DNA of 64,000 nt, from assembly GCA_965261395.1 (NCBI GenBank), contig OZ253462.1, positions 6,112,001 to 6,176,000 on the forward strand, read 5' to 3'. The DNA comes from Candidatus Latescibacterota bacterium (GTDB lineage: Bacteria; Latescibacterota; UBA2968; UBA8231). The notes beneath the pieces were generated by a model. That model did no database searches. It worked only from the letters and a program-made list of their open reading frames with translations, and was not told the origin of the DNA. Every line of letters starts with the position of its first letter. Within the stretch, counting starts at the first letter, position 1. Below, piece by piece: positions 5,489 through 64,000 of the stretch. The translations under genes and the position numbers were made by a program.

Positions 5489-5506
5489 GCTCACCTCGTA
5501 GGCTTT

Positions 5507-7795: not shown

Positions 7796-9733
7796 TCACG
7801 GACGGCCGGGAATGTACAGAAACGGCAACTGCCGCTCAACCGCCTTGTTTCGCGGTAATGCACCCTCTCCATAAAGGCCTCTGAGGCGCTGGGCCTCCGC
7901 GGGATGGTATTTAGACGCGATTTCCAGCACTTGCTCCGCCTTGGGGGCCTGGTCTTGTTGCAAGTACAGATCGATCAACTCGCTATAAGAGCCGTAAAAA
8001 TCAAATGCCGAGGGATTGCGGCGGAGGGCGATTTCGTAGGCTTTTAGGGCCCGGTCGTTTTCCCCGAGCTGGCGGTGGGCCCGCGCCAGGCTGATCCACA
8101 CCATTACTCTTTGCGGATAGACCCTCAACACCCGTTGAAAAGTGGGGATCGCAGCGCCGGCCTGGCCCTGGGCGGCCTGGACAGATGCCAAATTGTACCA
8201 CGCCTGCCAGTAGGCCGAATCAAAGTGTACGGCCCGCTCGAATGCCGCTTGCGCCCTTTCCAGTTCGCCCTCTTTGGCGTAGGCATTGCCCAGATTGTAG
8301 TGCACGGCGGCGTCGCCCTCCATATTCATGGGTGCCAGACCCACATTGGCGAACACCATACAAAAGATCACCCCTGCGGCCATGGCGGCAGTAGCCGAGA
8401 AACAGCGCTGCCGCAGGGCATTTACAGCGCAGTACCCACCATAAGTGGCGTACACCAGCAGCAGGGGAATAACCGGCAGGCGATAACGCGCCGTTACGAA
8501 AAAGGCGATGACGGAAAGGGCGTACAGCACGACAAACAAAAGGGGCAAGGAGAAAGCGCGATGGCGAATGGCCAGTGAGAGGCCCACCAGCGCCAGAGGA
8601 CCGACCAGACCGAAGGGAAAGGCAATGCCCCATTTCCACATAGTCGCGCTCAGGATGGCTGTATAGCGGCGCCAAAAATACAGGTCCTGATTGCGGCCAA
8701 TTTCATCGCCCTGCCAGAAAAGGTGGGTTTTTTGGGCCAGCAGGACCAAATAATCAATGGGTCGGGTGACTAGGTACTCTCGGGCTTTGTCCATGTAAAA
8801 ATCGGATTGCTGCACCAGCCGTTCGGCTTGGGCCTCGACCCTGGCCCGGTTCAACAGTTCGTACCATTCCCATCCCGGCCGGACATTCACCGTGCGCTGG
8901 TAATCCGGATTATTGCCAAGGTAGAAATTGATGCCGGCATTGGAAGAGATGAGCACAGCATCGCCACCGATGGCGTAGTTGCGCAGGGTCACTGGGGCGA
9001 TGGCTACGAGCAAACCCAACAGCAAGGCGCTGGGCAGGAGCAGCTGTTCCTGCAAAGACCGGTTCTGCTTGCGGAGCTCGTAGCAGACGTAGATAGCGGC
9101 TCCGAGCGCGAAGCTGAGCACGGTGGCCACCGTCAGAACGGCCAGACCAAACACCAGGCCCGCCCCGGCAAATCGCAGAAAAGAGGGGCGACGAAGGGCC
9201 CTAAGCAGCAGCGCCAATCCCGCCATATTGAGAAAATTACCCATCGTGGCCGGAAGTATTTCGCCGTCAAAAAAGATCAGCGGGCCATAGAGGGCGGCAG
9301 CGCCGGCCGCCGCCGCGCCGACCGCGGTATTGAAAAGCTGCCGTCCTATCGACCAAGTCAGGACGCAGAGCAAAGCGCCGCAGAGCGCCTGAAAAAAGCG
9401 TACCGCGTAAAAAAATAAATCGGGAGAGAGAGCATATAACAGGCCCAGCATATAGGGATATAGAGGCGGTTGCCAGAAGGCTTCCCGACCCTGTCCCAGC
9501 CAGTTCCCCGATGCTAGGTCCTGGGCGTGCCCTACGTAGGTGAGGCCGTCGACGGGGGGGTGGGCAAACAAAGGACTGGTCTCGATCTGGAAGATGTAGG
9601 CCACCCGCATGGCCAAAGCCAGGACGAATACACCCCACGGAATGGAGAAAATGCCAAAAGATTCGGCTTGTGTGCGCTTTTTAAACAATTTTAACGCCGC
9701 GCTAAATGAGCGATATAGATGTTTTATCAACAT
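7796..9733 (-). CDS. GT39/ArnT-like (GT-C fold) membrane glycosyltransferase with C-terminal TPR repeats
   Basis: About 12 TM segments, early D-x-x-x-Y and PPLYPY motifs, then TPRs (AAVHYNLGNAYA, AWYNLA). Start codon uncertain. Confidence 0.8.
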   Translation of the reverse strand: MLIKHLYRSFSAALKLFKKRTQAESFGIFSIPWGVFVLALAMRVAYIFQIETSPLFAHPPVDGLTYVGHAQDLASGNWLGQGREAFWQPPLYPYMLGLLYALSPDLFFYAVRFFQALCGALLCVLTWSIGRQLFNTAVGAAAAGAAALYGPLIFFDGEILPATMGNFLNMAGLALLLRALRRPSFLRFAGAGLVFGLAVLTVATVLSFALGAAIYVCYELRKQNRSLQEQLLLPSALLLGLLVAIAPVTLRNYAIGGDAVLISSNAGINFYLGNNPDYQRTVNVRPGWEWYELLNRARVEAQAERLVQQSDFYMDKAREYLVTRPIDYLVLLAQKTHLFWQGDEIGRNQDLYFWRRYTAILSATMWKWGIAFPFGLVGPLALVGLSLAIRHRAFSLPLLFVVLYALSVIAFFVTARYRLPVIPLLLVYATYGGYCAVNALRQRCFSATAAMAAGVIFCMVFANVGLAPMNMEGDAAVHYNLGNAYAKEGELERAQAAFERAVHFDSAYWQAWYNLASVQAAQGQAGAAIPTFQRVLRVYPQRVMVWISLARAHRQLGENDRALKAYEIALRRNPSAFDFYGSYSELIDLYLQQDQAPKAEQVLEIASKYHPAEAQRLRGLYGEGALPRNKAVERQLPFLYIPGRP

Positions 9734-9808: not shown

Positions 9809-9883
9809 AAAATGGTAGCTACAAAAAGACAGTGCAGCCTCTCCAATCCATAAGCTCTCTTGCCCTTCCATAAGGAGGAATCT

Positions 9884-10801
9884 ATGAGTAAGCTCTTAAA
9901 AGGTGTTGTGGCCTTTGCCATAGCGATCGGCTTTACCACATCCGCTGGTGCCCACGATCCGCCGGGCATAATCTTCGAGATGTGGCAATGGCCCACTTCG
10001 CAATTACCGGTTCTGGATGCCGATTTGTCTGAGTGGGATGTCGTGCCAGAGGAGTTGTGGATCACCGAACAGGATCTAAACAACCTCTTGATCACCCAAA
10101 TTGATGTCACTGATACCGAGCCGGATGCGTCTGACTTAGCCGTGCGTTTTACCTTTGGCTGGAACGACGAAACCGAGCGCATCTACTTGGCTTATGATCG
10201 CTACGATGACTATTGGAGCCACCAGCGCGACGATATCGAACTGGCCGTCGATGCCGATCACTCGGGTGGGCTCTACTGGAGTTCGGAAGGGCAGAGCGAT
10301 GAGGAAGCGCAACGTCAGCGAAACCGCCACGCCCAGATTTCCCACTTCTTCTTCCACAGCAAAACGGAAGAGGTTGGAGTACCTTGGAACTGGCACTGGA
10401 TGACCCAGGCCGATTGGTATCGGGGGGAACCTTATTCCGATGGCGCCTATCAGTGGACCGAGCCCGAACTGGGCCAGGAATACAACTGGCAAATCGAGCT
10501 GTGGCACGTGTGGTGGGACGATTTCAACTGGCAAGATCCCGAAGGCAGTATCATCCACGATCTGCAAGAAGGGGAGATCATCGGCTTGGCAGCCCGCCAC
10601 AAGGACGGGGACGTGGGCCTGTGCTGCGGCAATGAAGAGACCGGCGAAGTCTTCTCCGACTGGGCCCTCAACTTCAATGAATCTTCCGAAAACGCCGACT
10701 TCCTACCGGACTGGGTTCTCTTGCCAGTCAACACGGAACTGCTAGCGACGGCCGTTGAAAACGATACTTGGGGCCATATCAAGGCCTCTTTCAATCGGTA
10801 A
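9884..10801 (+). CDS. Secreted CBM9/DOMON-like protein with C-terminal TAVE..TWGxIK motif
   Basis: AAGGAGG upstream of ATG 9884; signal peptide (TSAGA-H); PVLDADLSEW, GWND..RIYL, DIELAVDAD; ends TAVENDTWGHIKASFNR. Confidence 0.8.
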   Translation: MSKLLKGVVAFAIAIGFTTSAGAHDPPGIIFEMWQWPTSQLPVLDADLSEWDVVPEELWITEQDLNNLLITQIDVTDTEPDASDLAVRFTFGWNDETERIYLAYDRYDDYWSHQRDDIELAVDADHSGGLYWSSEGQSDEEAQRQRNRHAQISHFFFHSKTEEVGVPWNWHWMTQADWYRGEPYSDGAYQWTEPELGQEYNWQIELWHVWWDDFNWQDPEGSIIHDLQEGEIIGLAARHKDGDVGLCCGNEETGEVFSDWALNFNESSENADFLPDWVLLPVNTELLATAVENDTWGHIKASFNR

Positions 10802-17893: not shown

Positions 17894-19035
17894 TCAATAG
17901 GTCACGGCAACAGTTCGCAGTACTTCCCGGTCTGTGACCCCGGCTCCCGCAAGTTCCGCGTTGATGCGCAAACGCCCGCAGTAGATACCTGGTGCCACTT
18001 TCGCGCCGGTATCATCCCGGCCGTCCCAACTCATGCTGTACTGGCCCGTGCTCAGGGATCGCCTTTCGACTAGGTGGCGGATGCGCCGGCCACTCAGATC
18101 GTAGATGCTCAACTCGACGGGACTGTCGTCGCTGAGACGGACGACCTTAAAGACCAGAGCTGCACTATCGTTGATCCCGTCTCCATTGGGCGTGAACACG
18201 GGCGGATGCACCTCTACGTCTATTAGCAGGGCCTTGCTCTGCGCCGTGCCCAGCAGCGTGGTCGTATTACTGGCAACCGAGGCTAGGGCATCGCCTGGAT
18301 CTACTCGTTGCCAGCCCTCTCCGCCGGAGGTGCTGTGGCGCAGGGCCGCCCGCAGGATCGTTCCGGTAGAAAAGAGGGCAGTAGTAAAATCGAGCCGCAG
18401 CAACTCGATCCCATCTGAGGGGCCGATGCCCGAAAATTTTAGCTGCAGGCTGTCCTGTCGGCTGGGCAGGCGGACAACGCCCTCTAGCTGCGATCCTGCG
18501 GCAAAGTTATCGGCTTGCCCTCCGTAGAGCCCAGAAAATTGCAGCTGCATGTCGGCTGAAGCCCTCAGCAGCAATTCGTCAAAGCCGATGTCGCCAGCGG
18601 CAAATTGGGGCCGGATATAGAGTGAAAAGCGGCGTTCCACGCCCAGCGAATCGACTTGGGCGGGGAAGACCTCGCCCACTATACTTTGGACCAGAGGCTT
18701 GGCGAAGTCGATATGGATGGCCCTGAGCGCGGCGCTGGTATCAGGATTTTCCGCTAGCAGCGTGGCCCGGATCTTGAGGAACTCGCGCGGTGAAGGGGAG
18801 AGTATGGGACTGCCGGTAGGGTCGGCATAAGGTTCGCTCCAGTCGCTCCAATCGCTGCCCGGTACGGCCTCTGGAATACTATCGCCCCTAGAAAAGGAGA
18901 GCATATCCCGGTACTCCGCTTCGGTGACCTCGTTGCCGCCTTTGTCAAAATAGTGGAGGACTTGCCCCAGTTCATTGCCGGTACGGGTCTGAATTAGCAC
19001 CTGGGTCCCCGGGGGGCTATCTGCCTCCCAGTCAG
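17894..19035 (-). pseudogene. 5'-truncated paralog of the TPNGDG/FlgD-Ig secreted proteins
   Basis: Homology starts abruptly at DWEADSPPGTQVLIQTRTGN; has WSDWS, SPSPREF, FTPNGDGIND, WDGRDD, TVAVTY; no signal peptide or discoidin part. Confidence 0.8.
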
Positions 19036-21914
19036 CTGATCTGGGTGGCGCGCACCTTCTATGTGGCGCTGGGCGGCACAACGGCGTTGGGGCCGGTGTT
19101 GGCGACCTGGGTTCGCATCGGTCTAACCGCTGTGGTGCTGGCTGCGCCGACCTTGCTCATGGGCGGAACCCTGCCCGCCGCGGCCAGAGCCGTCGCCCGC
19201 GATAAAGATGCGGGCCGGCAGCGGGTGGCTGCGCTCTACGGCGCCAATACCTTAGGTGCTGTAAGTGGGACCCTACTGGCCACCTTTGCCCTTTTGGAAT
19301 ATCTGGGAGCCCGCGGCACGCTGTGGCTGGCCTGCGCAGTCAACGCCGCTATCGGAGTACTGGCTCTGAGGTTTTCCCATTCGGGCGTTTTTGCAAATGC
19401 AACTCATGGGCAGGGCGACCTAGCAAAAGGGGCAGGGTCGAGGCAGCCCGCTCGTCAGAGGGCATTTGTCTTGGCCGCGGCCGCGGTCGTGGGATTTGCC
19501 TTTCTGCTCATGGAGCTGGTCTGGTACCGGATGCTGGCCTCTGTGCTTGGAGGCACTACTTATACTTTTGGAATCATTCTGGCCATGGGGTTGCTGGGCA
19601 TAGGCCTGGGTAGCATCGTCTATGCCCTATGGGGGAGAAGGCAAGCCCCGGCGCTTGCCGATCTGGCACTCACCTGCGTTGTCGAAGCCCTGTGCATTGC
19701 CCTGCCCTACGCCCTGGGCGACCGGGTGGCCGTGTTGGCAGGCGAGCTGCGCCAATGGAGCAGTGCGGGGTTTGCTGGATTGCTGCTCTCGTGGACTGCG
19801 GTCACCAGCCTTGTGGTCCTGCCCACCGCTATAGTCGCCGGTTATCAATTCCCACTACTCATTGCGCTAATGGGGTCGGGAAAGCGCCGATTGGGTGGCG
19901 ATGTGGGTTGGGCCTATGCTTGGAACACCTTGGGCACCATGCTGGGCGCGTTGGCCGGAGGGTTTGCACTGCTGCCGAGTTTATCCGCCCCGGGTGCTTG
20001 GAAGTTGGCGATCTTCTTACTGGCGATTTGGGGATGGGGATTGCGGCAGTTTCGCGGATTGGCAAGGAACGTCAGCAAGCGCGGGGCGGACCGATTTGGA
20101 GGCCGGGGTTGGTACTCGCGACTGCACTGGTAGCCCTGCTGCTGACGCTGGCGACCGGGCCGACAGCGGCGTGGCGCCATAGCCCGATCGGAGCGGGCTT
20201 AGAGGTGCTCCACGGTCGCAATGCCAACGAGATGCGCGATTGGTTGCACGAACAGCGCCGGGCGGTCTTCTGGGAACGGGAGGGTAGGGAAAGCGCGGTG
20301 GCCCTGCGACTGACTGATGCGGGCCCAGCTCTTTTTTTAAATGGCAAAAGCGACGGTTCGGCCATCGGCGATGCCCCGACCCAAATTATGGGCGGCATGG
20401 TGGGGGCGATTTTACATCCGCATCCCCGCAAGGCGCTGGTCATCGGTCTGGGAACGGGAAGCAGTGCCGGCTGGCTGGGTGCCATACCCAGTGTCGAGCG
20501 AGTCGATGTAGTGGAGCTAGAGGCGGCGGTGATCGAAGCAGCGCCGGTGTTTGAGACCGTCAACAAAGATGTCCTCGGCAATGCCAAGGTACACCTGCTC
20601 ATTGGGGACGCGCGGGAAGCCGTGCTGACCGGTCGTCGGCGTTACGACCTTGTCTTTTCCGAACCCTCGAATCCCTTCAGGGCCGGTGTCTCCAGCCTCT
20701 ACACCCGGGAATTTTACCAGGGCATTGCTGCGCGACTCGATGAAGGAGGTCTGTTCCTCCAGTGGCTACAGGCCTACGAAATAGACCCGGAAACCATCCA
20801 GACCATCTACGCCAGTCTCGGCTCGGTCTTCCCATTTGTAGAAACCTGGCAGACCAAGAAGCGGGATCTACTGCTGGTCGCTTCTTTAAAGCCCGTGTCC
20901 TACGACGTCTCCCGGCTGCGAGCCCGGATTGCGGAGGAGCCTTACCGCAGCGCGCTGGCAGTAGCTTGGCGGTCGGTTGATTTGGAAGGTTTTTTGGCCC
21001 ACTTCGTCGCCGGTCCCCAAACCGCGCGTCTTTGGAGTGCTCGGGCGGAGCTGAACACGGACGACCGCACGCAGGTCGAATATGCCTTAGCGCGAAGTTT
21101 GGGTGCCAGACAGCACTTCGACGTGGAGACACTCGAGAATTTGGCTCGCGACGGCCAAGAGCATAGGCCGCAGATTGCGAACGGTACGGTGGATTGGGAA
21201 CGGGTGCAAAGTCAGCGCATTGCCTTCTTGATCGGTCAGGGAGAACGCCTCCATCCGCGTCGATATCCCCACTTGAACGCCGACCAGAAAAACCGTATGA
21301 AGGCTCTGGCGGCTTGGCAACAAGGCGAGTTGACCACCGCGCTCGAATGGTGGTCCAAGCAATCGGATCCACCTGCGGGTCTGCACGAACAGCTATTTGT
21401 GGCGGCCATCATGGCCCACAATCAGCGCGAGGAAACGCTGCAGTATGCCGAGCGGCTGCGGGCATTCCAACCGATCGAAGCCGATATCATTATGGCCATT
21501 CTGCACACCCGCCAAGGGCGGACTGATAAAGGGGTGGCCGCGCTGGAGTCGGCCTTTTTAGGCTGTCGGACCGACCCATGGGCTTGGCCTGCGCTGGTGA
21601 AGAGCGCCCTAGCGCTGGCTGTGGATTTGGGGACCCGGGATGCGGGTCATGCGCGCCGGCTGTACAATGCCCTGCGCCAACCCTTTGTCATGGACTTTGC
21701 CAAAGAGGGACGTCTGGAGACTCTGTTGAATTTGAGCTTTCGGCTCGATTCACCGCGCGGCTGTATAGAGGTGCTCGAACAATTGGAGCCGCATATACCG
21801 TGGAAGCGCAAACTGCTCGAAGCCAGGGTGCGGTGCTATCGGGCTGGAGGCCATGCCAATAGCGAGAAGGCACAGCGGGATCTGGATGCCTATGTGGGGG
21901 CAGATGGAAATTGA
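19033..21914 (+). pseudogene. Fused membrane (MFS-like)/spermidine synthase-like methyltransferase, 5'-truncated and frameshifted
   Basis: PTLLMGGTLP, LYGANTLGA, VIGLGTGSSAG, VDVVELE, GDAR, SEPSNP. Frame change at ATTTGGGG (~20027) joins ORF 19045-20133 to ORF 19629-21914. First TM segments are missing. Confidence 0.85.
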
Positions 21915-37101: not shown

Positions 37102-37199
37102 CCGCCTTCACTCGGCCAGCCCGGAAATGTGACTTTAGTATATAACTCCCTACGGTTGACCCAGTTAGGCTTGCTCATGCGGGGAAAAGTACGGCCGTC

Positions 37200-46620: not shown

Positions 46621-46746
46621 GGTCACCCTTATAGTTGCTTCCTAGGCGACAAAGGTATCCGAAAAAAGGAGCCGTCGGGACAAATTACGCCTGCATCTTC
46701 AATTCGGTTAGTGGTTCTTTTGTAGGTTGGACGTGAATCCGACGGG

Positions 46747-53757: not shown

Positions 53758-53776
53758 CGCACCGGGGGTGGGCATG

Positions 53777-53805
53777 TTGATTTTATCACCCTCGTTTATT
53801 ATTAT
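53777..53805 (+). promoter_or_regulatory. Putative sigma70 promoter of the envelope operon
   Basis: TTGATT-17 nt-TATTAT, followed by AAGGAG and ATG 53868. Confidence 0.6.
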
Positions 53806-53867
53806 GGCACTTCAATCAACGCGCCGGAGATTCCCGGTGTTCACTTCAAACGCAAGGAGTTAAGAAC

Positions 53868-54815
53868 ATGCGGCGATTCACAATCGCAAGCATTTTCAGC
53901 CTCGCCCTCGTAAGCGCGGCAAATGCTCAGTTTTTCGATCCGCCCGCCCTAGAGGACCGCAATGGCGGTCAGGGATTTTGGTTTTACATGCTCGAAGTCC
54001 CCGATCCCAGTGCTATCACCGTCGACGGGCATAGCGACGACTGGAGTTGGTTCGACCCTGAGTACACCTTGACCATGGACGAGTGGCGCGACGAAGGCGA
54101 CCGGGCGGCCCCAGACCGCGACGACCTGTTCATCACCACCTTCATGGGTTGGAAGGGCGGCGACGACAACCGCTGGTACTGCTTCTTGGAAGCGGTTGAC
54201 GACGTGCTGGCGCACGCTGGCACCAACGTCGCTCGCTGGGACGGCGACATGCTACAGGTCGGCCTCGATCCGCAGGATCACGGACGCGAGCGCAGCCCGG
54301 CTTCGGGTTACACCATGGAGTGGCTGATGGCACCCGGCGACCTCAGTCCGCCGACCAACGTCGCTTTCCGCTACACCGAGCAAGAGGCGTGGGCCGAGTA
54401 CGGCGAATCGCCGTGGATCGAAATGGCCGTGCGCGTCGATCCGCCCGAAGCTTGGGCCGCCGACCTGTGGGCCGAGGGTGGCACCACGTACTACGAGTGG
54501 AGCGTCAAGGTCCTCGCCTTCCAAGAGGACACCGGCCCGTCAGCGAGCGAGGAATGGCAGCTAGACACAGTGGCCGGTGAAGACGGCGCGGGCATGCCTT
54601 TCGCCTTTTGGTACGAAGACGGCGAAGGCCCGGATTCGAGCTTCTCGCCCAGCGAAGACGGCACCCCGGGCGGCCGCAACGACTGGACCACCCGCGGCCC
54701 CGAAGCCTCGGCGCGGCAGTACTACTCCATTGCCAAGCTGCTGCGCGTCGGCGAGTACGCCGCCGCCACAGCAGTCGAGTCATCGACTTGGGGCAAGATC
54801 AAAGACTCGTTCTAA
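53868..54815 (+). CDS. Secreted CBM9/DOMON-like protein with C-terminal TAVE..TWGxIK motif
   Basis: Signal peptide (AANA-Q), ITVDGHSDDW, MGW...RWY; ends TAVESSTWGKIKDSF; same architecture as 9884-10801. Confidence 0.8.
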   Translation: MRRFTIASIFSLALVSAANAQFFDPPALEDRNGGQGFWFYMLEVPDPSAITVDGHSDDWSWFDPEYTLTMDEWRDEGDRAAPDRDDLFITTFMGWKGGDDNRWYCFLEAVDDVLAHAGTNVARWDGDMLQVGLDPQDHGRERSPASGYTMEWLMAPGDLSPPTNVAFRYTEQEAWAEYGESPWIEMAVRVDPPEAWAADLWAEGGTTYYEWSVKVLAFQEDTGPSASEEWQLDTVAGEDGAGMPFAFWYEDGEGPDSSFSPSEDGTPGGRNDWTTRGPEASARQYYSIAKLLRVGEYAAATAVESSTWGKIKDSF

Positions 54816-54821
54816 ACGCAA

Positions 54822-54878
54822 GGCGACCGACCGGTCGTAATCGTAGGGGCGACCGGTCGGTCGCCCCTACGTTATTTT
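54822..54878 (+). terminator. GTAG-type REP-like hairpin / terminator
   Basis: CGTAGGGGCGACC-GGTC-GGTCGCCCCTACG (54842-54871) followed by TTATTTT; an inverted partial copy lies at 54822-54837. Confidence 0.65.
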
Positions 54879-54892
54879 TAGGGGGTTGCACC

Positions 54893-55606
54893 GTGTACAA
54901 ACGGCTCTGGGCTTGGTTCGTACTGCTGATCCTGCTGCTGGGGGCTTGCGGTCGCTACTTTCACACGCCGCTCCAGCCTGCCAGCCGCCAAGCCGAGGGC
55001 ATGACCGTCAACGACGACGGCTCCATCACCTACGCCCTCGACCGCCTGTCGATCAACCTCAAGCCCATGACGGACGAGGAATTAAACCGCCTCGCTCCCG
55101 GGCGAGATCTGTCCAACAATCCCTATACCTTTGGCGAATGGACTGCCGCGGGCGACGAGTGGACGCCGCCGCGGTTTACCATTTTTCGGCTCAAGGTCAG
55201 CAACTATCAATATCCCAAGGTCAAACTCGACCCGCTCAACGCGCGCATTACCACGGCCAACACCCGGCAGTACGAGGTGCTGAGCTACGCCGAATTATAC
55301 CAGTATTTTCGCTCGTATTGGCTGGGGCGCACGGGCCAAGGGCGCAAGACCTTTCAAGCTCGCACGGACGCACTCAAGCGGACGCTGTACAGCGGGGCCT
55401 TGGTCTTCAGCGGCAGCGAAGAACAGGGGTATCTGGTCTTTCCCCTCCTCGACGACGATGTCCGGGCGATCCAAGTATACATAGAAAACATTGTCTTGCG
55501 CTTCGACTATGCAGACGCCCCCGTAGAGGCGATTGACCTGAGCTTCTCCTTCCAGCGCAACATCCTGCAAGGGTATGACCCCTCGGCCGCGGTGCGGCTC
55601 AACTGA
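54893..55606 (+). CDS. Uncharacterised lipoprotein (237 aa)
   Basis: GTG 54893: VYKRLWAWFVLLILLLGA-C lipobox; GYLVFP; TGATG overlap with the next gene. Confidence 0.85.
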   Translation: MYKRLWAWFVLLILLLGACGRYFHTPLQPASRQAEGMTVNDDGSITYALDRLSINLKPMTDEELNRLAPGRDLSNNPYTFGEWTAAGDEWTPPRFTIFRLKVSNYQYPKVKLDPLNARITTANTRQYEVLSYAELYQYFRSYWLGRTGQGRKTFQARTDALKRTLYSGALVFSGSEEQGYLVFPLLDDDVRAIQVYIENIVLRFDYADAPVEAIDLSFSFQRNILQGYDPSAAVRLN

Positions 55607-57594
55607 TGACCGCCCGCGCGCCCAGATCCCTCGTCGGCACCCTCCTAGTGGTGCTTGGAGGACTAGCGCCAAGCGATGCCCAAGTCGAGGTGTGGCACAT
55701 CGGCAAGGGGGGGCTTTCGTGGGTTTCCCAGGCCGAGACGCAAATCGGCGCGCTGGACGTCGATGGTGCCCTACAGCCCTTGCAGCTACAGGCCGGGGAA
55801 AACCTCATTGAGCTGCTCCGCGCTTCAGGGCAACGCTTTCTCAACGGCCAACCCCGCGACTTCATCCTCGGCGGCCAGCCGCGCGCGTGGTCCAACGACG
55901 GCTTCTTCAACCAACTCGCCGGCCCCCTCGACCTGATCGATGGCGATCCGGCGACCTCCTCGTCGGGCGTGTTCAAGACCGCGCAGAGCCAAGCCGGGGC
56001 GACGTTCTTCTGGGATTTGGGCGCGCCCTTCCCAGTCAACCGCATTCGCTTCTTTCCCGCTCCCGACGATGACGCCTTTGTCAAAGCCTTTGAACTGCGG
56101 GTCAACGACGGCGAAAACTTCAACGACATCAACCGGCCGCAATACGAACTCTTGCGGCGGGTAGAAGTCAACCGCGAATCCACAGTAGACATCGAATTTG
56201 CCCCCTTGCAAGGCCGCTTCCTCCAGTTACGCGTGCTGTCGAAGACGGTGTTCAACATCGCGGAGTTTGAAATCTACGGGCAGGGCTTTGTGCCGGTCGC
56301 CAGCTACGAGTCGGCTCTGCATTCCTTTGGCGGACCGGTCAACTACGGCCGCTTGCGCGTACACACCACGCACCTCGGCGCAACCGCGGCCGCGACCGCA
56401 GCCATCCAGATGCGGACCGGAGCCGACGACAGCCCGCTGGCGTACTTTCGTCGCGACCGCGACACCGGTCGCCAGCAGGAGGTGCCGGCAGCCGAATACA
56501 ACACCAGCCTACCGAGGCGCGCCCTGTTCCGCCAAGACGCGGTCACCGGCGAGCTATTAGAGGAACTGGACCGAGCCAGCTATCTCAATCTGCCAATCGA
56601 AGAGCAAGGACCGGTGCGCGATTTTGCCAAGGGCGACATCCGCGACGACGTGGTCAACTGGAGCGCGTGGTCGCCGAGCACGCAGGTCGCCGGCACGGGC
56701 ATAGTCGAGGTGCCCATCGGGCTGCCCAGCCCGCGGGAATTCATGCAGTTCCGCATCCTCTTCGACGGCGACGCGGAAAACGCCGTGCGCATCGACACCT
56801 TTCAGGTGGAGTTTTCGCCCGGGCTAGTCAGCGCGGCCGTCGGCGAGGTGGCCCTCGCCAGCGATCCCTTTCCCGCCAGCGGCCTGCTCGAAGTCGCAGG
56901 GGGTATCGACACGACCTTTACCTACGACATCCGCACCGAATTCGCCGCCGGCGTGGCCGGGTATCGCGGCGTCCGCATCGAGGCATTTCCACCGCCAATA
57001 TTCGAGAGCCTGCAAATGGGCGATCCCCTCGCGGCCGTAGAAGACTTTGAATGGACGGCGACCGAGAGCGGCTTCGACATTCTCTTCGCGCCCATCGCCG
57101 CCGACAACAACCAGCCCCTGCGGCTCACCTTCCGCCTGCGGCTGCTGGTGCACAATACCCCGATCAATGCCTATCTCTTGGGCGCAGGGAGCGTCCCGCC
57201 GCATCCCATCGCCCCGGGCAATGCCAGCGAATTAGTGGGCACGAACGCGACCAACGCCTTTGTCACTCAAGCGCAGCCCGAGCTGCAACTAGCACTTTCA
57301 ACGGCCATCATCTCGCCCAATGGGGACGGCCGCAATGATGCCGTCGCCATTGACCTCGTGTTGTCCCAGTTTGCCGCGGATACGGCAGTCGCCGTCGAGA
57401 TCTTCGACCTTAGCGGACGCCGGGTGCGGCAGCTAGTCTCCCAGCCGCGGGCCGCCGGTTTTTACTCCGAAATCTGGGATGGTCGCGACGAACAAGGCGG
57501 TTTGGTCGCACCGGGCTTGTACCTCTGCCGCGTCGGCGTGGACGCCGACTTCGACGTGTTTGCCGCAGTAGAGCCGATAGGGGTGGCCTATTGA
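55606..57594 (+). CDS. Secreted discoidin-like protein with C-terminal FlgD-Ig / T9SS type-B-like domain
   Basis: Signal peptide; DLGAPFPVNRIRFFP, IAEFEIYG, RTG.D, NWSAWS, PSPREF, SPNGDGRND, WDGRD, PIGVAY. Confidence 0.88.
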   Translation: MTARAPRSLVGTLLVVLGGLAPSDAQVEVWHIGKGGLSWVSQAETQIGALDVDGALQPLQLQAGENLIELLRASGQRFLNGQPRDFILGGQPRAWSNDGFFNQLAGPLDLIDGDPATSSSGVFKTAQSQAGATFFWDLGAPFPVNRIRFFPAPDDDAFVKAFELRVNDGENFNDINRPQYELLRRVEVNRESTVDIEFAPLQGRFLQLRVLSKTVFNIAEFEIYGQGFVPVASYESALHSFGGPVNYGRLRVHTTHLGATAAATAAIQMRTGADDSPLAYFRRDRDTGRQQEVPAAEYNTSLPRRALFRQDAVTGELLEELDRASYLNLPIEEQGPVRDFAKGDIRDDVVNWSAWSPSTQVAGTGIVEVPIGLPSPREFMQFRILFDGDAENAVRIDTFQVEFSPGLVSAAVGEVALASDPFPASGLLEVAGGIDTTFTYDIRTEFAAGVAGYRGVRIEAFPPPIFESLQMGDPLAAVEDFEWTATESGFDILFAPIAADNNQPLRLTFRLRLLVHNTPINAYLLGAGSVPPHPIAPGNASELVGTNATNAFVTQAQPELQLALSTAIISPNGDGRNDAVAIDLVLSQFAADTAVAVEIFDLSGRRVRQLVSQPRAAGFYSEIWDGRDEQGGLVAPGLYLCRVGVDADFDVFAAVEPIGVAY

Positions 57595-59648
57595 CTGCGG
57601 TGAGCAACATGCGGTGGCTGGTGCTGATTCTCATCATCAGCAGTCCAGTGGCAGCGCAGACGCCCTCGGCTTGGGTCGTAGGGGGCACAAGCGGCGAGCC
57701 TTGGGCTGAGGCCGCAGAGCGCTGGATCGCCCTCGACGACACGGTGCGTTCCGGGGCGATTCAGCCTCGGGCGATTCCCCTAGGCCACACGGTTACTCGC
57801 CAAATCGTGCGCACCGGCATTGCCACGACCCAGCGCAACCTCTTTGGCTATCGCTGGAGCTTGCACAAGGGGCCGCGCCAGATCGAGGCCGACACCTTAG
57901 AAATCGGGTGGCACCCGCGCCTGTGGCAGGGAGGCGGAACCAACGCCCTCGCCGCAGAAGTCATGCGCGGATTAGTCGATGGCGACGGACTAACCGCGGG
58001 CTTTACCCACAAGGCGCGGGCCGATCGCCGCCCCAACAGCGTGCAGTTCATCACACTCGACCTCGGCGTACCCGTGCCCGTTGACAGCATCGTGTTCTTT
58101 CCGCCGCAGACCGGGCTGACCAGCGACAACCAGCGGCAGCGCGAGCTGTTCGCCCGCGCCTATGAAGTCAGCCGGACCAACGTACCGGTCGAATGGCTGA
58201 TCTTTGAAGACGAGACTACCTCGACCGGGTCGGCGGGGTACCACCCGCTCGACGAGATTCTCGCCAGCACCTTTGCCAACAACACCAGCGTCGTCTCCCT
58301 CGCACCGGACCTGCGCTTTACCCGCTTTCTCCGCTTCAAGTTCGGAGAAGTTTCCACCACGACTTTGCTGGCCGAAATCGAGGTCTTTGGCCGCGGCTAC
58401 CCCCAAGAGGCCCGCTACATCTCCGCGCCCCATTCTTTCGACCAAGCCGTAAGCTTGGGACGGGTCACGTGGAAATTCACCCGCTATCGCCAATTGCCTT
58501 CTGGCGCGATCACCGCCGACCCCACCGCACCGGTGCAGCTAAACTTGCAGACCCGCGCTGGCTTCGACCCCGATCCCAAGACGTACTTCATCTTCGACGA
58601 CCTCGGCCGACTGGTGGAAGTAGATGAGGAGACCTATTTCGACTCGCCGAGGGTGGTGGAGCGGTTTTCCGAGGGGATCGCCGGTTTCCGGGCTAAGCGC
58701 GACGACGACATAGAAAACTGGAACAACTGGTCGGTTGATTACCAAGCCTCGGGCGACGAGATCCGCTCCTCTGACGGAGCCGAGTTCCTCCAGTTTCGCT
58801 TTACCATCACCACCGAAGACCCGCTGGCCTTTGGCGTGCTCGACAGCTTGGCTTTTGAAGTCTCGCCGCTGTTGGCCGATCGCGCGCTGGCGGAAATTGT
58901 CCTCGACGGGCGCGCCGATGCGGACGGTGCCGTCGAGGTGCCCCTCGGGGTCGTCCAGCGCTTTGCCTATCACATTCGCACAGTGGCTGGCGCAACCGAC
59001 CGCGCGGGGTTCGACGGCATCGAGTTAGAGGTTCCTCCGGCCAGCCGCTTTCTCGACCTAACCATCGACGACCAGCCAGCGACCGAGGGCGTGGACTTTT
59101 CCCTCGCCGCCAGCGACGGGCGGTTGCGCTTCACCTTTCCCACGGCGTTCCAAGAAGACAAGGCGTTTCGCGTGCGCTTTCAAGGCGCGGTCTTCCAGCC
59201 CTCGGTCTTTTTGGCCAGCCGCCTTTTTAACACCTCGGCTGCTAGCTTGCCCCAGTCCATTGAGGGTGGAGATGCTCACGCCGACGTGGCCAGCAACAGC
59301 ATCCAAGTCGTTTCCAGCGACGCGGCCTTGGGCGTCCTCGGGGCGGTTGAGTTGTCTTCGCCCGTGGTCACGCCCAACGGCGATGGGACCAATGAGCAGG
59401 TCGCCATTGGCTTCGACTTATTCGGCGTCGCTGGGGGTGCGTTGCGGGTGGAGGTGCGCGACCTGAGCGGTCGTCGCTGCGCCGCGATCTTGGACGCGCG
59501 GGCCGCAGCCGGTCCGTACGCACTGCAGTGGGATGCGCGGGACGAGCGGGGAGAACTCGTGCCCCCAGGACTGTACCTAATCCGCGTTGAGGTAGAGGTC
59601 GATCACGGCACGTTCGCCCGCATGGAAGCGGTCGGAATCGCGTACTAA
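57591..59648 (+). CDS. Secreted discoidin-like protein with C-terminal FlgD-Ig / T9SS type-B-like domain
   Basis: Signal peptide (ATG 57609 is an alternative start); DLGVPVPVDSIVFFP, LAEIEVFG, NWNNWS, TPNGDGTNE, WDARD, AVGIAY. Confidence 0.88.
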   Translation: MTAVSNMRWLVLILIISSPVAAQTPSAWVVGGTSGEPWAEAAERWIALDDTVRSGAIQPRAIPLGHTVTRQIVRTGIATTQRNLFGYRWSLHKGPRQIEADTLEIGWHPRLWQGGGTNALAAEVMRGLVDGDGLTAGFTHKARADRRPNSVQFITLDLGVPVPVDSIVFFPPQTGLTSDNQRQRELFARAYEVSRTNVPVEWLIFEDETTSTGSAGYHPLDEILASTFANNTSVVSLAPDLRFTRFLRFKFGEVSTTTLLAEIEVFGRGYPQEARYISAPHSFDQAVSLGRVTWKFTRYRQLPSGAITADPTAPVQLNLQTRAGFDPDPKTYFIFDDLGRLVEVDEETYFDSPRVVERFSEGIAGFRAKRDDDIENWNNWSVDYQASGDEIRSSDGAEFLQFRFTITTEDPLAFGVLDSLAFEVSPLLADRALAEIVLDGRADADGAVEVPLGVVQRFAYHIRTVAGATDRAGFDGIELEVPPASRFLDLTIDDQPATEGVDFSLAASDGRLRFTFPTAFQEDKAFRVRFQGAVFQPSVFLASRLFNTSAASLPQSIEGGDAHADVASNSIQVVSSDAALGVLGAVELSSPVVTPNGDGTNEQVAIGFDLFGVAGGALRVEVRDLSGRRCAAILDARAAAGPYALQWDARDERGELVPPGLYLIRVEVEVDHGTFARMEAVGIAY

Positions 59649-59658
59649 TGGAGGCGAC

Positions 59659-62016
59659 ATGAAAACTCTACAGCTAGCGGTTGCTTTCCTCCTGCTCGCG
59701 GCCGCGGCCAGCGGCCAGAACCTGCGCTTTGCCGGGTCCGACTTTGCTTCTTGGGCCCACCCGCAGGGGCTGGTCGAGGTCTTGCCGCAAGGCATTAAAG
59801 TGAAGCGCTTTGAGCAGCGGTTTAACGCGGTGGCCAACGCCCGCGAGTTTTCCGCCAAGGCCATCGGCGACTACGGGCAGCGCTTTGCGCGCACGCCGTC
59901 CAACCAGCAGCAGGCCGACCTAGCCGGCGACCAAGACCCCAACACTTGGTGGCAACCCGACCCGGACACCCCGGTGCAGTTGTGGTGGCTGGAGCTGGAC
60001 TTGGGGCGCACCGTGGTGGCCGACAAGGTGCGCGTCCGCTTCCCCAACCGCGAGGGGGCCAAGCCCTTTAACTTTTTTTCGCTGTACGTCAGCCCGGGCA
60101 TTCCGGTATTCGGCGGTCGGGCCAAGCGCATCGTCTATCGCCGGCTGGGCCGACCGATTAACAACAACACCGAGTCCTTGGTCGAATTCGACCTCACCAC
60201 GACCGGCCTTGCCACGGCCACGGGCGAGCATCTGAGCGCGGACGAGGTCCTCGACTTCGACATCGTGCGCTTCGTGCGCTTTGAAGCAGCCGGTGCAACG
60301 CCCGATGCCGCGCTCGCCGAAATAGAGGTGGACGGCATTGGCTTCAACCTCTCCTCCATGGTGCAGACCGAAGATCGGACCGAGCACTGGGGAGGACGGA
60401 CGTGGACGTCCAAGCACCGCGACTGCCAAGGCTGCGGCAAGGGCAGCGGGTCCCAAGCCCTCATCGACCAAGACGTGGGATTTCGCGGGTGGAACATCGA
60501 GGCGTCGGACAAGGGCAATTGGCGCGATTCAGGCGTCTGGTCCGTCGTCGATTTCGGCAACGTCTTTCGCGTCGATCGCCTCATCTGGATGCCCATTGTG
60601 TCGGGCCGCGGCCCGTTCCTCTACGGCTTCCAGCGCGACAAGCAGGGCAGTTGGCCCAGTTTCGATTTCTTCGCTTCCAACGGCACTCCCAGTAACAGCA
60701 CCGACCCAGTCGTCGAAGGCCCTTTCCACTACGAATTGCTGTCTTCCGTGGCCAACTCTGGCCGCTATTTGTTCGACTTCCAGTTCGAGCCGCGCGCGCT
60801 GCGGCTGCTGATGTGGCGCGTGACGCGGCCGCAGCAGTTCCACCGCGCCGTCCAACTCTTCGTCTTCCACAGCGAAGGCTATCCCGTGCAAATCGAGCTG
60901 GAGTCCGCAGACATTTTCCTCGGCGGTGCCCGCAGCATGCGCTTCGTCGAATGGGACGCCGACCTGCCGCCCAGAACTCGCATCGAAGTGGAAACCCAGA
61001 CCGGCAATGGCTTCCAGACCATCACGCGCTACTTCCTGTCCAATGGCAAAGAAGTGACCAAACAAGCCTACGAGTCGGCCAAGTCCCGCAACCGCGGCGA
61101 CATCGTCGAGGAACAGGTGCGCGACGACACCTGGAGCGCGTATAGCCAACCCCATCGGTTCTCAGGGCAAGCATTCCTCTCGCCGTCGCCGCGGCAATGG
61201 CTGCGGGCGCGGGTGCGGCTCATCAGCGACGATCCAGCGGCCTTCCCCACCCTGCGATCGCTCACATTTGTGGCTAACGCGCCGATCATCACGGCTGGCC
61301 TGACGGGCCGCGTCTTCCCCCGCGAAGCCCCCATGGACACATTGCAGACGTTCCGCTACACCATCGCGCCGGTGGCCTTCAACAGCCGAGACACGGGGTT
61401 CGACCGCGCGCTAATCCTACTCCCGCCCGGCGGCGGCCGTGACGTCGTATTCATCAGCGCATCCGTAGGAGGAGCAGAAGTCGAGGCCACTGGCCTGTTG
61501 CGGGGGGATTCGCTCTTGGTGGAACTGCCGCCGCCGCTGGTCCGGCGGGATTCGGTCGCCATCGCCTTTTCCACCCGCTTGTCCCACAGCCCGACGACCT
61601 TCAAGGCGTTCGTCTTCAACTCGGCCGCCGGCGACAACCTCCAAGGCGTCGTCCCCGCTGAGTTCGGCGCTGACTTGGTCTTCGTGCCCGAGGCAGTCGC
61701 TGGCGGCTCGTTGATCCGCAACGTCGAACACACTCGGTTGATAACCCCCAACGGCGATGGCGCAAACGACCAATGCGAACTGCAATTTACCGTGGTAAAA
61801 ACCGAGCGCGCACCGCAAGTACAGGTCTTTACCCTAGATGGCCAGCCCGTGGTCGAGCTTGCAAGCCAAGGCCTGCCGGGGCGGCGCGTCCGCTACGTCT
61901 GGGACGGACAAAGCGCCGGCCGCGCGGTGCCGCCCGGCGTCTATGTCCTGCGTATTGCCATAGAAGCAGATGCCCGCGCCGACCGGGCTTACAGGCTCGT
62001 ACATGTTGCTTATTAA
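59659..62016 (+). CDS. Secreted protein with two discoidin-like units and C-terminal FlgD-Ig / T9SS type-B-like domain
   Basis: GGAGG RBS, signal peptide; LELDLGR..ADKVRV and VDFGNVFRVDRL; SPSPRQW, TPNGDGAND, WDG, LVHVAY. Confidence 0.88.
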   Translation: MKTLQLAVAFLLLAAAASGQNLRFAGSDFASWAHPQGLVEVLPQGIKVKRFEQRFNAVANAREFSAKAIGDYGQRFARTPSNQQQADLAGDQDPNTWWQPDPDTPVQLWWLELDLGRTVVADKVRVRFPNREGAKPFNFFSLYVSPGIPVFGGRAKRIVYRRLGRPINNNTESLVEFDLTTTGLATATGEHLSADEVLDFDIVRFVRFEAAGATPDAALAEIEVDGIGFNLSSMVQTEDRTEHWGGRTWTSKHRDCQGCGKGSGSQALIDQDVGFRGWNIEASDKGNWRDSGVWSVVDFGNVFRVDRLIWMPIVSGRGPFLYGFQRDKQGSWPSFDFFASNGTPSNSTDPVVEGPFHYELLSSVANSGRYLFDFQFEPRALRLLMWRVTRPQQFHRAVQLFVFHSEGYPVQIELESADIFLGGARSMRFVEWDADLPPRTRIEVETQTGNGFQTITRYFLSNGKEVTKQAYESAKSRNRGDIVEEQVRDDTWSAYSQPHRFSGQAFLSPSPRQWLRARVRLISDDPAAFPTLRSLTFVANAPIITAGLTGRVFPREAPMDTLQTFRYTIAPVAFNSRDTGFDRALILLPPGGGRDVVFISASVGGAEVEATGLLRGDSLLVELPPPLVRRDSVAIAFSTRLSHSPTTFKAFVFNSAAGDNLQGVVPAEFGADLVFVPEAVAGGSLIRNVEHTRLITPNGDGANDQCELQFTVVKTERAPQVQVFTLDGQPVVELASQGLPGRRVRYVWDGQSAGRAVPPGVYVLRIAIEADARADRAYRLVHVAY

Positions 62017-62029
62017 GAGGGAGCGCACT

Positions 62030-64000
62030 GTGAGACGTCGAATTTTCGCACTGCTAATTTGTCTGTTCGCTTGGCCACCGCCGCAACAGGCAAGCGCCCA
62101 ACGCGCCACTGGGTACGACAACCCCTATTACGCCACGGGCACTGAAGTCTCACCGGCGACCCTCGTGCCTTCAGTGCGCAAGTGGTACCTGCCGCAGCGG
62201 CTGTACTCGCAGTACGACTGGCGACAAGAGCAATACTCCAACTACGCCCGCGACCACTACGAGCGCTACACCGAGGTCTTCTTGGAAGGCTCGCCATTCT
62301 ACGACGTGTACGGCGATTACATCACGCAGGGCTGGCTGGTGTACGACTGGACCGAAGACTACCCGGAAGACAACGGCAGCATCATCACCAAAAATCCGCG
62401 CTTTCGTTCGTGGTTCAACAACCTGCTCATATCGTCGAGCCATTCCGGGCAGTTCCACTCGGCCTTGATGGTGGGCGACGGCATCCGCACCACCCTGACC
62501 CCCCTGACGTTTTCCAAGCCGCGCTTCGACGGCATTCAGTGGGATCTCCTGACCGACAAGTACGCTCTGACCATGCTGTCGTCGCGGGTCAGCAACACCG
62601 GGGAAATTTCCTCCAGTGAAGTCGGGGGTGGCGTCCAGGCCAATACCTTCACCGCCCTGATGGCGGCCAAGGGGCGGGTGCAGGTCGGGGATTTTGCCGC
62701 CCTCGGCGCGACCTTGGTCAATGCGGCACATCGCAACTCCAACCTGCCTTTTGGCGACAACTCGCTCAGCGGCCTGCTCAGCGGCCCGATGAACGCGGAC
62801 TTTGTGCGCTCCATTGTCGTGCGCATTTCCGACGATTCGCCCGAAGACGGCGAGGGCGGCGCACTGCTGTCGCGCTGGCGCATCTTCATCAACGGCGTCG
62901 AGCACACCAAAGACATCGTCGCCGTGGTCGAGGGCGGCATTCGGCGCGGCGGCGCAATTGTGGCCAGCGGCACGGACGTCATCACGCTGACCTACAACAT
63001 CGAAGACTTCTCCCCGAGCACGGATGACGCCATCGACGATTTTCGCGAGATCGAGCGCATTGAAATCGGCCTCGTGCTGGCCAACGACTACAAGGTCGAA
63101 GTGACCTCCAACAAGCAGACCAACAACCTCGGCACGCCCGTATTCCTGCCGGTGTTGCGCGCGTCCGGCAACGTCAAGGACGGCTCGAATCAGGCATTTC
63201 ACCGGTTCAGCTACGGCCTGCCGACCGGGACCCGCATGTTGGGCTTCGACCTCGCCATTGCCGACCTGCAAGGCTTTGACTTCAGAGGCGAGTTCGTCCG
63301 CAACTTTCAGTACCGCCGCTTTCCCAACGAGAACATGGCCACGGGCCAGACGCTGGCGGCCAACGAGGCCCAAGCCATGTACGCGACCGCGCAGAAACGC
63401 AACTATCCCTATACGTTTTTCGCCGAGGTTTTCAGCATCGACGCGGATTACTCCACCCGCGCCTTTATCCCCAACGCCGAGGGACAGGTGTTCTACGATA
63501 ACGAGCAGCGGCACCTGTATGAATTCGTCGACGACAACGACGATCAGGACGAACTGCCAGACTGGACGCGGCGCACGTTCGGCAGCCGCGTCAACACGCG
63601 GCAGGGGCAGCAGTTGCTGACCGACGCCGCGGTCTTCCCAGGCATTGACGAGGACAACGACGACATTTCGGATTTCAACCGGAACTTCAACACCCAGCCC
63701 GACTACGCGGAGCCGTTTCTGCGCTTTGAGGTGGACCCGCCGGAGTTTTTGTTCGGCATGGACATGAACAGCAACGGCGTCATCGACCGCTTCGAGGACG
63801 ACGGGGAAGCCGATTACCCCTACAAGCTGGGCCGCCGGGGAATCAATACCTATGCGGCCGTCGAAATCCTGCCCCGCACAACCGTCATGGTCGGCTATCT
63901 CGACCAGCGACTACTAGAGACCGCCCGGGAAAACCAAGCTGCCTACCTGCTGCTGACCGCGAAAAAGGACTTCCCCGCAAAGGACTTCAGCGCGTGGCTG
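62030..64000 (+). CDS. Third paralog of the ~940-aa Asp-rich secreted/outer-membrane family (3' end runs off the window)
   Basis: Translated by hand from GTG 62030 (GAGGGAG upstream): MRRRIFALLICLFAW..ASA-Q; VRKWYLPQ, YSNYAR, QGWLVYDW, TTLTPLTFSKPRF, ISDDSPEDG, DDNDDQDELPDW, PEFLFGMDMN. Confidence 0.9.
   Translation, partial: MRRRIFALLICLFAWPPPQQASAQRATGYDNPYYATGTEVSPATLVPSVRKWYLPQRLYSQYDWRQEQYSNYARDHYERYTEVFLEGSPFYDVYGDYITQGWLVYDWTEDYPEDNGSIITKNPRFRSWFNNLLISSSHSGQFHSALMVGDGIRTTLTPLTFSKPRFDGIQWDLLTDKYALTMLSSRVSNTGEISSSEVGGGVQANTFTALMAAKGRVQVGDFAALGATLVNAAHRNSNLPFGDNSLSGLLSGPMNADFVRSIVVRISDDSPEDGEGGALLSRWRIFINGVEHTKDIVAVVEGGIRRGGAIVASGTDVITLTYNIEDFSPSTDDAIDDFREIERIEIGLVLANDYKVEVTSNKQTNNLGTPVFLPVLRASGNVKDGSNQAFHRFSYGLPTGTRMLGFDLAIADLQGFDFRGEFVRNFQYRRFPNENMATGQTLAANEAQAMYATAQKRNYPYTFFAEVFSIDADYSTRAFIPNAEGQVFYDNEQRHLYEFVDDNDDQDELPDWTRRTFGSRVNTRQGQQLLTDAAVFPGIDEDNDDISDFNRNFNTQPDYAEPFLRFEVDPPEFLFGMDMNSNGVIDRFEDDGEADYPYKLGRRGINTYAAVEILPRTTVMVGYLDQRLLETARENQAAYLLLTAKKDFPAKDFSAWL

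Follow-up and report, generated by a model that had tools for sequence, protein, structure and literature searches.

In Bacteroidota, type-B cargo proteins of type IX secretion systems (T9SS) bind PorP/SprF-like proteins, which are often encoded in adjacent genes, according to two publications (PMC9143113; PMC12618676). One of them gives 12 type-B substrates for Flavobacterium johnsoniae (PMC12618676). Here we describe an operon at the end of a 64,000-nucleotide stretch of a Candidatus Latescibacterota genome (assembly GCA_965261395.1, contig OZ253462.1, positions 6,112,001 to 6,176,000), which is called the window below. The operon encoded four protein families, designated A to D: a CBM9-like secreted protein (A), a lipoprotein (B), lectin-like proteins with type-B-like C-terminal domains (C), and a large protein of an undescribed family (D). 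This focal operon was one unit of a massively expanded cassette family, which had been overlooked in an earlier note on the same DNA. The reading that we prefer, and to which we give about as much credence as doubt, is that the cassettes encode type IX-style lectin cargo together with an outer-membrane partner of their own that does the job of PorP/SprF, so as to form a surface-exposed lectin complex.

Layout of the focal operon

ORF calling placed six genes on the plus strand of the region from 53,777 to 64,000 in the order A, B, C1, C2, C3, D (ORF, open reading frame; aa, amino acids; nt, nucleotides):

53777..53805, plus strand: promoter-like site (TTGATT, 17 nt, TATTAT) found by consensus scan, 63 nt upstream of gene A
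53868..54815, plus strand: gene A, 315 aa, secreted, CBM9-like family, ending in STWGKIKDSF (ORF)
54842..54879, plus strand: terminator-like hairpin between A and B, 13 bp (10 of them G-C) with a 4-nt loop, followed by TTATTTTT
54893..55606, plus strand: gene B, lipoprotein of about 237 aa within ORF 54608-55606, with a probable GTG start at 54893 before the lipobox LLLGAC
55606..57594, plus strand: gene C1, 662 aa, subfamily c; N-terminal part discoidin/CBM32-like, middle part conserved, C-terminal domain of the type-B-like/FlgD-Ig kind
57591..59648, plus strand: gene C2, 685 aa, subfamily c, a C1 paralog (33% identity to C1)
59659..62016, plus strand: gene C3, 785 aa, subfamily b, a paralog with a longer N-terminal part (ORF, BLAST subfamily)
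61970..64000 and past the window end, plus strand: gene D, Asp-rich, 890-901 aa, undescribed family, final gene of the operon (completed from the genome)

Genes B, C1, C2, C3, and D were tightly coupled. Namely, B and C1 overlapped by 1 nt (TGATG), C1 and C2 by 4 nt (TTGA), C2 and C3 were separated by a 10-nt gap, and C3 overlapped D. Gene A was set apart by the terminator-like hairpin, the strongest of the region, which lay in the 77-nt spacer between A and B and had a predicted RNA folding energy of -40.3 kcal/mol (z -4.7; 0 of 200 shuffled sequences were as stable). Thus, the previous description of a tightly coupled operon with TGATG and TTGA overlaps was correct for the junctions from B to D but not for gene A. 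Every cassette product had an N-terminal export signal or a lipobox, and the next gene after D was on the opposite strand. Promoter-like sites around the operon gave a weak signal, with 3 seen and 1.4 expected in the consensus scan.

Metatranscriptome contigs that were 95-99% alike, from four libraries of two studies, covered 26-29 of the 30 bins of positions 53000-63999, and single contigs spanned the B/C1, C1/C2, C2/C3, and C3/D junctions. This demonstrated presence in RNA libraries, in which carry-over of DNA is possible, and it is proof neither of transcription nor of a single transcript. The contig word depth was 67-173 over A and 3-17 over B to D, with positions 53000-53733 nearly uncovered; contig depths and uncovered parts can neither rank genes nor reveal transcription starts and were not used as evidence. 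Two runs with a 0.07 share, labelled as an animal-host metagenome, are no guide to the habitat.

Expansion of the cassette family and its gene order

When every ORF of 100 aa or more in the 6.55-Mb genome was searched with profiles, 149 C, 46 D, and 15 B genes were recovered, and an iterative profile search brought the A family to 36 paralogs. Together, the four families occupied 511,404 bp, or 7.8% of the genome, and their genes formed 76 loci, of which 32 held a D by manual count of the listing. BLAST clustering divided the C genes into subfamilies a to e and several minor ones, and the order of the subfamilies was fixed across loci. The recurrent architectures were A-Ca-Cd-Ce-D-D, Cd-D-Ce-Ca-(D)-A, A-(B)-Cc-Cc-Cb-D-(B), and A-Ch-Cg-D-B. 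The focal operon was arranged as A-B-Cc-Cc-Cb-D, and the same type of architecture was present in two further loci. Lipoprotein genes of family B, which had no Pfam or NCBIfam match and no relative in the PDB, occurred only in loci where no second D directly followed the first.

Immediately upstream of the 46 D genes there were 31 C genes within 300 nt, 9 other D genes, 2 A genes, and 4 cases with none of these, and 40 of the 46 belonged to C-D or C-D-D chains. A pattern scan of species genomes from the Genome Taxonomy Database (GTDB) found 78 further loci, mostly in metagenome-assembled genomes (MAGs) titled Candidatus Latescibacterota and some in MAGs with Gemmatimonadetes or Gemmatimonadota in the title. 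These loci were the best matches to one D subtype and hence a biased sample. After 7 loci that had no upstream DNA were left out, a C gene stood just upstream of D in 63 of the remaining 71, another D in 3, and neither in 5. The gene order in this genome and in the others therefore supported the earlier suggestion that the large protein is the dedicated genomic partner of the C proteins, as well as their expected synteny across genomes. The D family was detected in 70 of the 121 sampled genomes of the phylum, the window's own included. Within the window's family, each of the 40 other genomes in the sample had it, whereas it was present in 0 of 29 and 0 of 13 genomes from two sister families. 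Moreover, the distances of adjacent C and D proteins were correlated (r 0.60), a value that was reached in 0 of 2000 permutations.

Lectin-like modules and C-terminal domains of the C proteins

The five C copies of the window were aligned, and they were 23-33% identical to C1. Their tails shared an invariant P-N-G-D..N followed by W, G..V.PG.Y, and a terminal Y, which bore out the motifs quoted before for these paralogs. In the whole genome, 145 of the 149 C proteins had the C-terminal domain (CTD), always at the extreme C-terminus.

The CTDs resembled two Pfam families. C1 matched FlgD_ig (PF13860) with 33.6 bits and CHU_C (PF13585) with 23.0 bits, the cut-off being 27 for both; C2 reached 24.2 bits with FlgD_ig, below its cut-off of 27, and had no CHU_C match; C3 reached 26.2 bits with CHU_C (cut-off 27) and had no FlgD_ig match. 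A 747-aa C copy elsewhere in the window scored 34.3 bits with FlgD_ig and 26.7 bits with CHU_C, and a truncated 395-aa copy scored 33.2 bits with FlgD_ig. For the type-B model TIGR04131, C3 gave 19.9-24.2 bits at a cut-off of 35, and NCBIfam searches with the tails of the window's C proteins returned sub-threshold TIGR04131 matches and also hit the PorU model at its C-terminal end. Similarly, the C1 profile matched the structure of FlgD (3osv, E 1.1e-8) and that of the PorU CTD (6za2, E 0.0022).

In the genome as a whole, TIGR04131 had 58 matches at E<=1e-3, all of them in C genes and 8 above the cut-off. The type-A model TIGR04183 had 95 matches; the best 80 included no C protein, and 12 of the 15 weakest were C proteins. 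Judged by these two models, the tails of the genome fell into two cleanly separate classes, type-A and type-B-like. The description of the C tails as type-B-like was thus upheld in that they resembled type-B rather than type-A domains, but most of the matches remained just under the curated cut-offs. Outside the C family, 86 other ORFs of the genome carried tails.

In the N-terminal part, the C1 profile matched structures of CBM32 modules (2rva and 4zz5, both E 1.7e-5; 4a41, E 7.1e-5; also 2j7m). C1 orthologs in public data carried PF00754 (discoidin), PF13585, and PF13860, with PF00754 found in most orthologs below about 76% identity. Among the focal proteins, C3 alone showed PF00754 F5_F8_type_C, at 21.2 bits against a cut-off of 28.2. 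Accordingly, the discoidin-like motifs that had been noticed in the C proteins were supported at the profile level.

A separate observation concerned a C gene located just upstream of a D-D pair at genome position G000:C1:4804939-4807142. It was split into a 497-aa part without a tail and a 254-aa part with a tail, likely by a frameshift or an assembly error.

The large partner protein D

The full-length focal D gene (L017:8970-11675) encoded 901 aa from its first ATG. Counted from the second ATG, after which comes a signal-peptide-like stretch, the length was 890 aa. The partner of about 940 aa that had been assigned to the focal operon was therefore somewhat shorter than stated, and the 939-aa protein was a paralog at 2675-5494. 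The large proteins of the window were paralogous, with identities of 42% (E 4e-160) and 38% (E 2e-135), and the C-terminus of the family was conserved and ended in ..SFITVYAGL. One protein search gave 1096 matches to the family among 7999 scored candidates, and 918 clusters were found in a library of 50%-identity representatives. All named members were annotated as 'hypothetical protein' and came from Latescibacteria or from MAGs labelled Gemmatimonadetes.

The three D copies of the window had no Pfam or NCBIfam match, 30 paralogs from the same genome had no Pfam match, and the D profile found nothing among PDB sequences up to E 10. Two weak leads were obtained. First, the ESM features of D were nearest to those of DUF6029 (score 0.89). 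Second, sub-threshold matches to the SlpA_C barrel (PF21620) were seen in 9 of 28 distant D relatives, the best with 30.2 bits at a cut-off of 35, and in 1 of the 30 paralogs. The period-2 hydrophobicity of D gave 25 amphipathic segments, compared with 19.1 +/- 3.6 in shuffled sequences (32 of 500 shuffles reached 25); this measure was non-discriminating, and the C profile, which looks soluble, had a higher score.

Two loci with DUF4159 proteins, at G000:C1:3543176-3551957 and 5305048-5314935, held a divergent subgroup of D genes that scored 211-283 bits with the D profile, and one of these two loci had three D genes in a row.

Type IX secretion genes and the preferred reading

Of the type IX components that the earlier note had named for a search of the genome, SprA was present (594.9 bits, cut-off 200), as was PorU (618.4 bits, cut-off 420), and a PorV-like gene adjoined PorU with 150 bits, below the cut-off of 250. 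The model search found no PorP/SprF in the genome; it was equally silent in all control genomes, so the absence is not proven.

We suggest that these components and the cassettes could work together in the following way. The C proteins would cross the outer membrane through SprA by means of their CTDs. D, as a large outer-membrane protein, would receive and hold them, as the PorP/SprF barrels do for type-B cargo. Lipoprotein B would be an accessory factor, and A, made in excess, would join the complex through its conserved C-terminal tag. Foldases of the SurA type encoded near the cassettes may serve assembly, and membrane proteins of the GT-C type with tetratricopeptide repeats (TPR) may serve glycosylation. 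The 32 loci with a D would then yield different ligand specificities.

Several observations weigh against this model. On the secretion side, GldM was not found, in a search that was silent in all control genomes and hence did not prove its absence, and GldK gave only weak partial matches of at most 70 bits at a cut-off of 350, where the controls had sub-cut-off matches in three non-Bacteroidota genomes. The motor part of a canonical T9SS was thus unconfirmed. On the side of the cargo, all three focal CTDs scored under the curated type-B cut-offs, at least 9 Cc-Cb pairs had no D nearby, and a one-to-one pairing of C with D was impossible because there were 149 C and 46 D genes. The correlated divergence of C and D would also be given by duplication of whole cassettes alone, without any physical contact. 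As for the partner, no PorP/SprF model (PF11751 / TIGR03519) matched the D proteins, and sequence models gave no support to the earlier idea of a PorP-like D; D is also about three times larger than the PorP/SprF barrels. Its putative location in the outer membrane had only its context and the weak leads to DUF6029 and SlpA_C behind it. On balance, the earlier interpretation was right in kind, in that the cassettes encode type-B-like cargo with a dedicated partner, and unproven with respect to the fold of the partner.

Neighboring genes and a possible role in uptake

A Pfam scan of 98 ORFs outside the four families in 20 loci revealed recurrent accessory genes, including SurA-like parvulin peptidyl-prolyl isomerases (PPIases). 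For comparison, the share of the genome that falls inside this 6-kb distance is 8.1% for D genes and 18.8% for C and D genes taken together. The genome-wide copies, counted by their distance of up to 6 kb from these genes, were distributed as follows:

SurA-like parvulin PPIases: 33 copies, 20 within 6 kb of D, 28 within 6 kb of C or D
PMT_2/TPR proteins (GT-C type): 35 copies, 14 within 6 kb of D, 26 within 6 kb of C or D
FG-GAP/ASPIC proteins: 50 copies, 10 within 6 kb of D, 29 within 6 kb of C or D
DUF6785/DUF6784 proteins: 57 copies, 9 within 6 kb of D, 22 within 6 kb of C or D

TPR proteins were also recurrent among the cassette neighbors. None of the recurrent accessory genes was adjacent to the focal operon. 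The SurA-like PPIase paralogs had 476-584 aa (e.g., L096:1946-3616 and L114:2152-3906), and 33 of them in one genome is an unusually high number.

The best surviving alternative, which we nevertheless regard as unlikely, is that the cassettes are uptake machines. In such a machine, D would be an outer-membrane transport barrel analogous to SusC, A and C would be surface glycan catchers, and each cassette would act as an import unit similar to a polysaccharide utilization locus (PUL). The CBM9-like and CBM32-like modules on A and C are what one would expect of glycan catchers, and the presence of many diverged cassettes in one genome is PUL-like. Sulfatase, FGE-sulfatase, and ABC solute-binding genes were found beside some loci, scattered and at the locus flanks only, and 22 of the 57 DUF6785/DUF6784 membrane proteins were near C or D, compared with 18.8% of the genome. 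However, no plug, TonB-dependent receptor, or other Pfam domain was detected in the window's D copies or in the 30 paralogs, and there was neither a SusD-like gene nor any glycoside-hydrolase Pfam family among the 98 neighboring ORFs. The recurrent neighbors were foldases, TPR proteins, and GT-C proteins, with no glycoside hydrolases, and this set therefore looks like one for surface assembly rather than for catabolism. For the same reasons, namely the missing receptor domains, the missing SusD-like neighbor, and the small number of degradative enzymes in the loci, the earlier picture of a SusC-like D with the CTD proteins as its lids gained no support.

Gene A, its hairpin, and its C-terminal tag

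The A family was linked to CBM9 by its profile, which matched the CBM9 structure 1i82 (E 4e-4), and by PF06452 (CBM9_1), which 5 of 16 A paralogs matched with a best E of 1.3e-9; the Pfam scan found no PF06452 match in the focal A itself. The two A copies of the window were related only marginally by BLASTP (E 0.004), and their membership in one family rests on the iterative search.

The focal copy ended in the tag TAVE..STWGKIKDSF. Of the 36 A copies of this genome, 31 had the motif [ST]W[GA]x[ILV]K in their tails, as did 28 of the 29 distinct A tails collected elsewhere. In comparison, it occurred in 24 of 16,342 other ORFs of the genome, several of which were small proteins with the full TAVE..SWGxIK ending. 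The tail may be a sorting or docking signal of A. As a separate observation, an ..AVE..SWGxIK.. tail stood on roughly two dozen small ORFs that do not belong to the A family (140-330 aa; e.g., G000:C1:1557469-1559361, 4196758-4197627, 6287359-6287835, and 6304399-6304821), and it may be a portable C-terminal signal.

Hairpins similar to that after the focal A gene recurred in the family. Within 110 nt 3' of the gene they followed 18 of the 36 A genes, compared with 2 of the 15 B genes, 3 of the 149 C genes, and 1 of the 46 D genes, and they occurred even where C and D genes continued on the same strand. Because a terminator-like hairpin follows A, this protein may be produced in excess over the products of B to D.

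The layout of a hairpin after the gene of a major subunit is known from major-pilin genes. It is conceivable, if rather improbable, that the cassettes assemble a fiber or coat, in which A would be the major subunit, polymerized or anchored by its TAVE..SWGxIK strand, D an usher-like pore, the SurA-like PPIases the chaperones, and the C proteins minor or tip lectins. The hairpins after half of the A genes, the conservation of the A tag, and the 20 of 33 PPIase genes within 6 kb of D, compared with 8.1% of the genome, would all fit such a fiber, and the size of D is about that of an usher. On the other hand, D had no match to ushers or to any other family, polymerization of A was without evidence, no PPIase gene was next to the focal operon, and the T9SS-type tails of the C proteins are not needed by this model.

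We give a similarly low probability to a self-contained new pathway of outer-membrane assembly. In this pathway, which would go beyond T9SS cargo with an anchor, D would be a giant pore or platform, A the major surface subunit made in excess behind an attenuating hairpin, and TAVE..SWGxIK a sorting or donor-strand signal recognized by D; the SurA-like foldases and the GT-C glycosyltransferases would complete the system.

Least probable of all is that the C tail is a structural Ig domain of the FlgD type and not a secretion signal, with the C proteins periplasmic or leaving by another exit and D unrelated and kept by co-duplication: the best Pfam match of C1 was FlgD_ig instead of CHU_C, the focal CTDs were below the type-B cut-offs, and the searches, with uninformative controls, found neither PorP/SprF nor GldM and matched GldK weakly and partially, but 145 of the 149 C paralogs had the domain, always at their very C-terminal end, 8 paralogs exceeded the TIGR04131 cut-off in a class separate from roughly 80 type-A tails, the C1 profile also matched the PorU CTD, and SprA, PorU, and a PorV-like gene were present.

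Other features of the window

The window contained a second cassette at its start and a truncated C copy:

3..2672, minus strand: second D paralog, running off the window start, with a length of 980 aa when read in the genome (paralog search)
2675..5494, minus strand: D paralog, 939 aa, 12 nt after the C gene (paralog search)
5507..7750, minus strand: C protein, 747 aa, subfamily e (Pfam, BLAST subfamily)
7796..9733, minus strand: TPR-repeat protein resembling a membrane glycosyltransferase of the GT-C type (PMT_2), one of the recurrent cassette accessories (Pfam)
9860..10801, plus strand: A paralog, 313 aa, ending in TWGHIKASFNR, divergent from the second cassette (iterative search)
17894..19081, minus strand: truncated C copy, 395 aa, with the middle part and the CTD only (Pfam, alignment)

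It had been stated that the gene order of the focal operon recurs at 1-10.8 kb. We found a different one: the minus strand held a GT-C/TPR gene, one C, and two D genes, there was no lipoprotein gene, and A was on the opposite strand. The further fragment reported at 17.9-19.0 kb was indeed the C-terminal half of a C protein (395 aa, 17894-19081). The possibility that this copy was a full gene disrupted by a frameshift was rejected, as no N-terminal half was present upstream.

Between the two cassettes there was a cluster of PhyH-type dioxygenases together with a sulfatase and two proteins of the BNR (sialidase-like) kind (10925-12514, 23353-25246, and 27568-30150), and two proteins of the DUF6785+DUF6784 membrane type were encoded on the minus strand at 12523-14463 and 25317-27311. 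An N6 DNA methylase gene was apparently split (34181-34831 and 35675-36877) around an IS4/IS5-type transposase gene at 34753-35556 on the minus strand, and further transposase genes were located at 32233-33243 and 37175-37858. At 45265-50441, the minus strand encoded a sigma factor of the extracytoplasmic function (ECF) type fused to a long C-terminal part, followed by DUF1302-like, LolA-like, and MMPL-family proteins. This was a separate envelope or lipid-export module.

Significance and comparison with known systems

Full-text literature searches turned up no published description of the cassette, and neither did a term search within a paper on the related PAUC34f lineage. If the preferred reading is true, a whole uncultured lineage at the phylum level sets aside as much as about 8% of its genome for a never-studied surface system, and the principle of T9SS cargo with a cognate partner extends outside Bacteroidota, with a new and much larger partner family. 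The genome would also offer dozens of natural cognate pairs for learning how tails are distinguished, and the C-terminal tag of the A family and the cassette-specific SurA-like foldases would indicate assembly steps without a described counterpart. With respect to ecology, the cassettes are obvious candidates for the binding of polymers or host surfaces by these bacteria.

A further comparison was that with the C-terminal outer-membrane barrel of Deinococcus SlpA (PF21620), which distant D relatives matched weakly over about 80 positions. All these matches were under the 35-bit cut-off and D had no SLH domain or coiled coil; SlpA was a lead rather than a homolog.

Chaperone-usher pilus operons shared with the cassettes a gene for a small, abundant subunit followed by a hairpin, genes for periplasmic chaperones, an envelope protein of about 900 aa, and minor lectin-like proteins. 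However, no cassette sequence matched those of ushers, PapD-like chaperones, or pilins, and the cassette foldases were of the SurA/parvulin type. SusC/SusD loci of Bacteroidota were similar in that many diverged paralogous loci combine a large envelope protein with surface proteins of a glycan-binding type. In contrast to these loci, D lacked a TonB-dependent receptor or plug domain, there was no SusD-like protein, degradative enzymes were few, and the binding proteins had T9SS-type tails instead of being lipoproteins.

The closest known counterparts were the pairs of T9SS type-B cargo and PorP/SprF barrels, such as SprB-SprF, Fjoh_3952-Fjoh_3951, and PG1035-PorP-PorE. Both systems had a C-terminal domain of about 90 aa with PNGDG..ND and a match to TIGR04131/CHU_C, a dedicated envelope partner encoded beside the cargo gene, more than one cognate pair in a genome together with some orphan cargo, and SprA, PorU, and a PorV-like gene. 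They differed in the partner, since D had about 900 aa and came from an undescribed family that matched no PorP/SprF model, and in the tails, most of which were below the curated cut-offs in the cassettes and scored equally well or better as FlgD_ig. Moreover, the cassette hosts were not Bacteroidota, and the cassettes had additional fixed members, namely the CBM9-like tagged A protein, lipoprotein B, the SurA-like PPIases, and the GT-C/TPR proteins. Finally, the scale was different: compared with the F. johnsoniae set of 12 type-B substrates (PMC12618676), the cassette genome encoded 149 cargo proteins and 46 partners.

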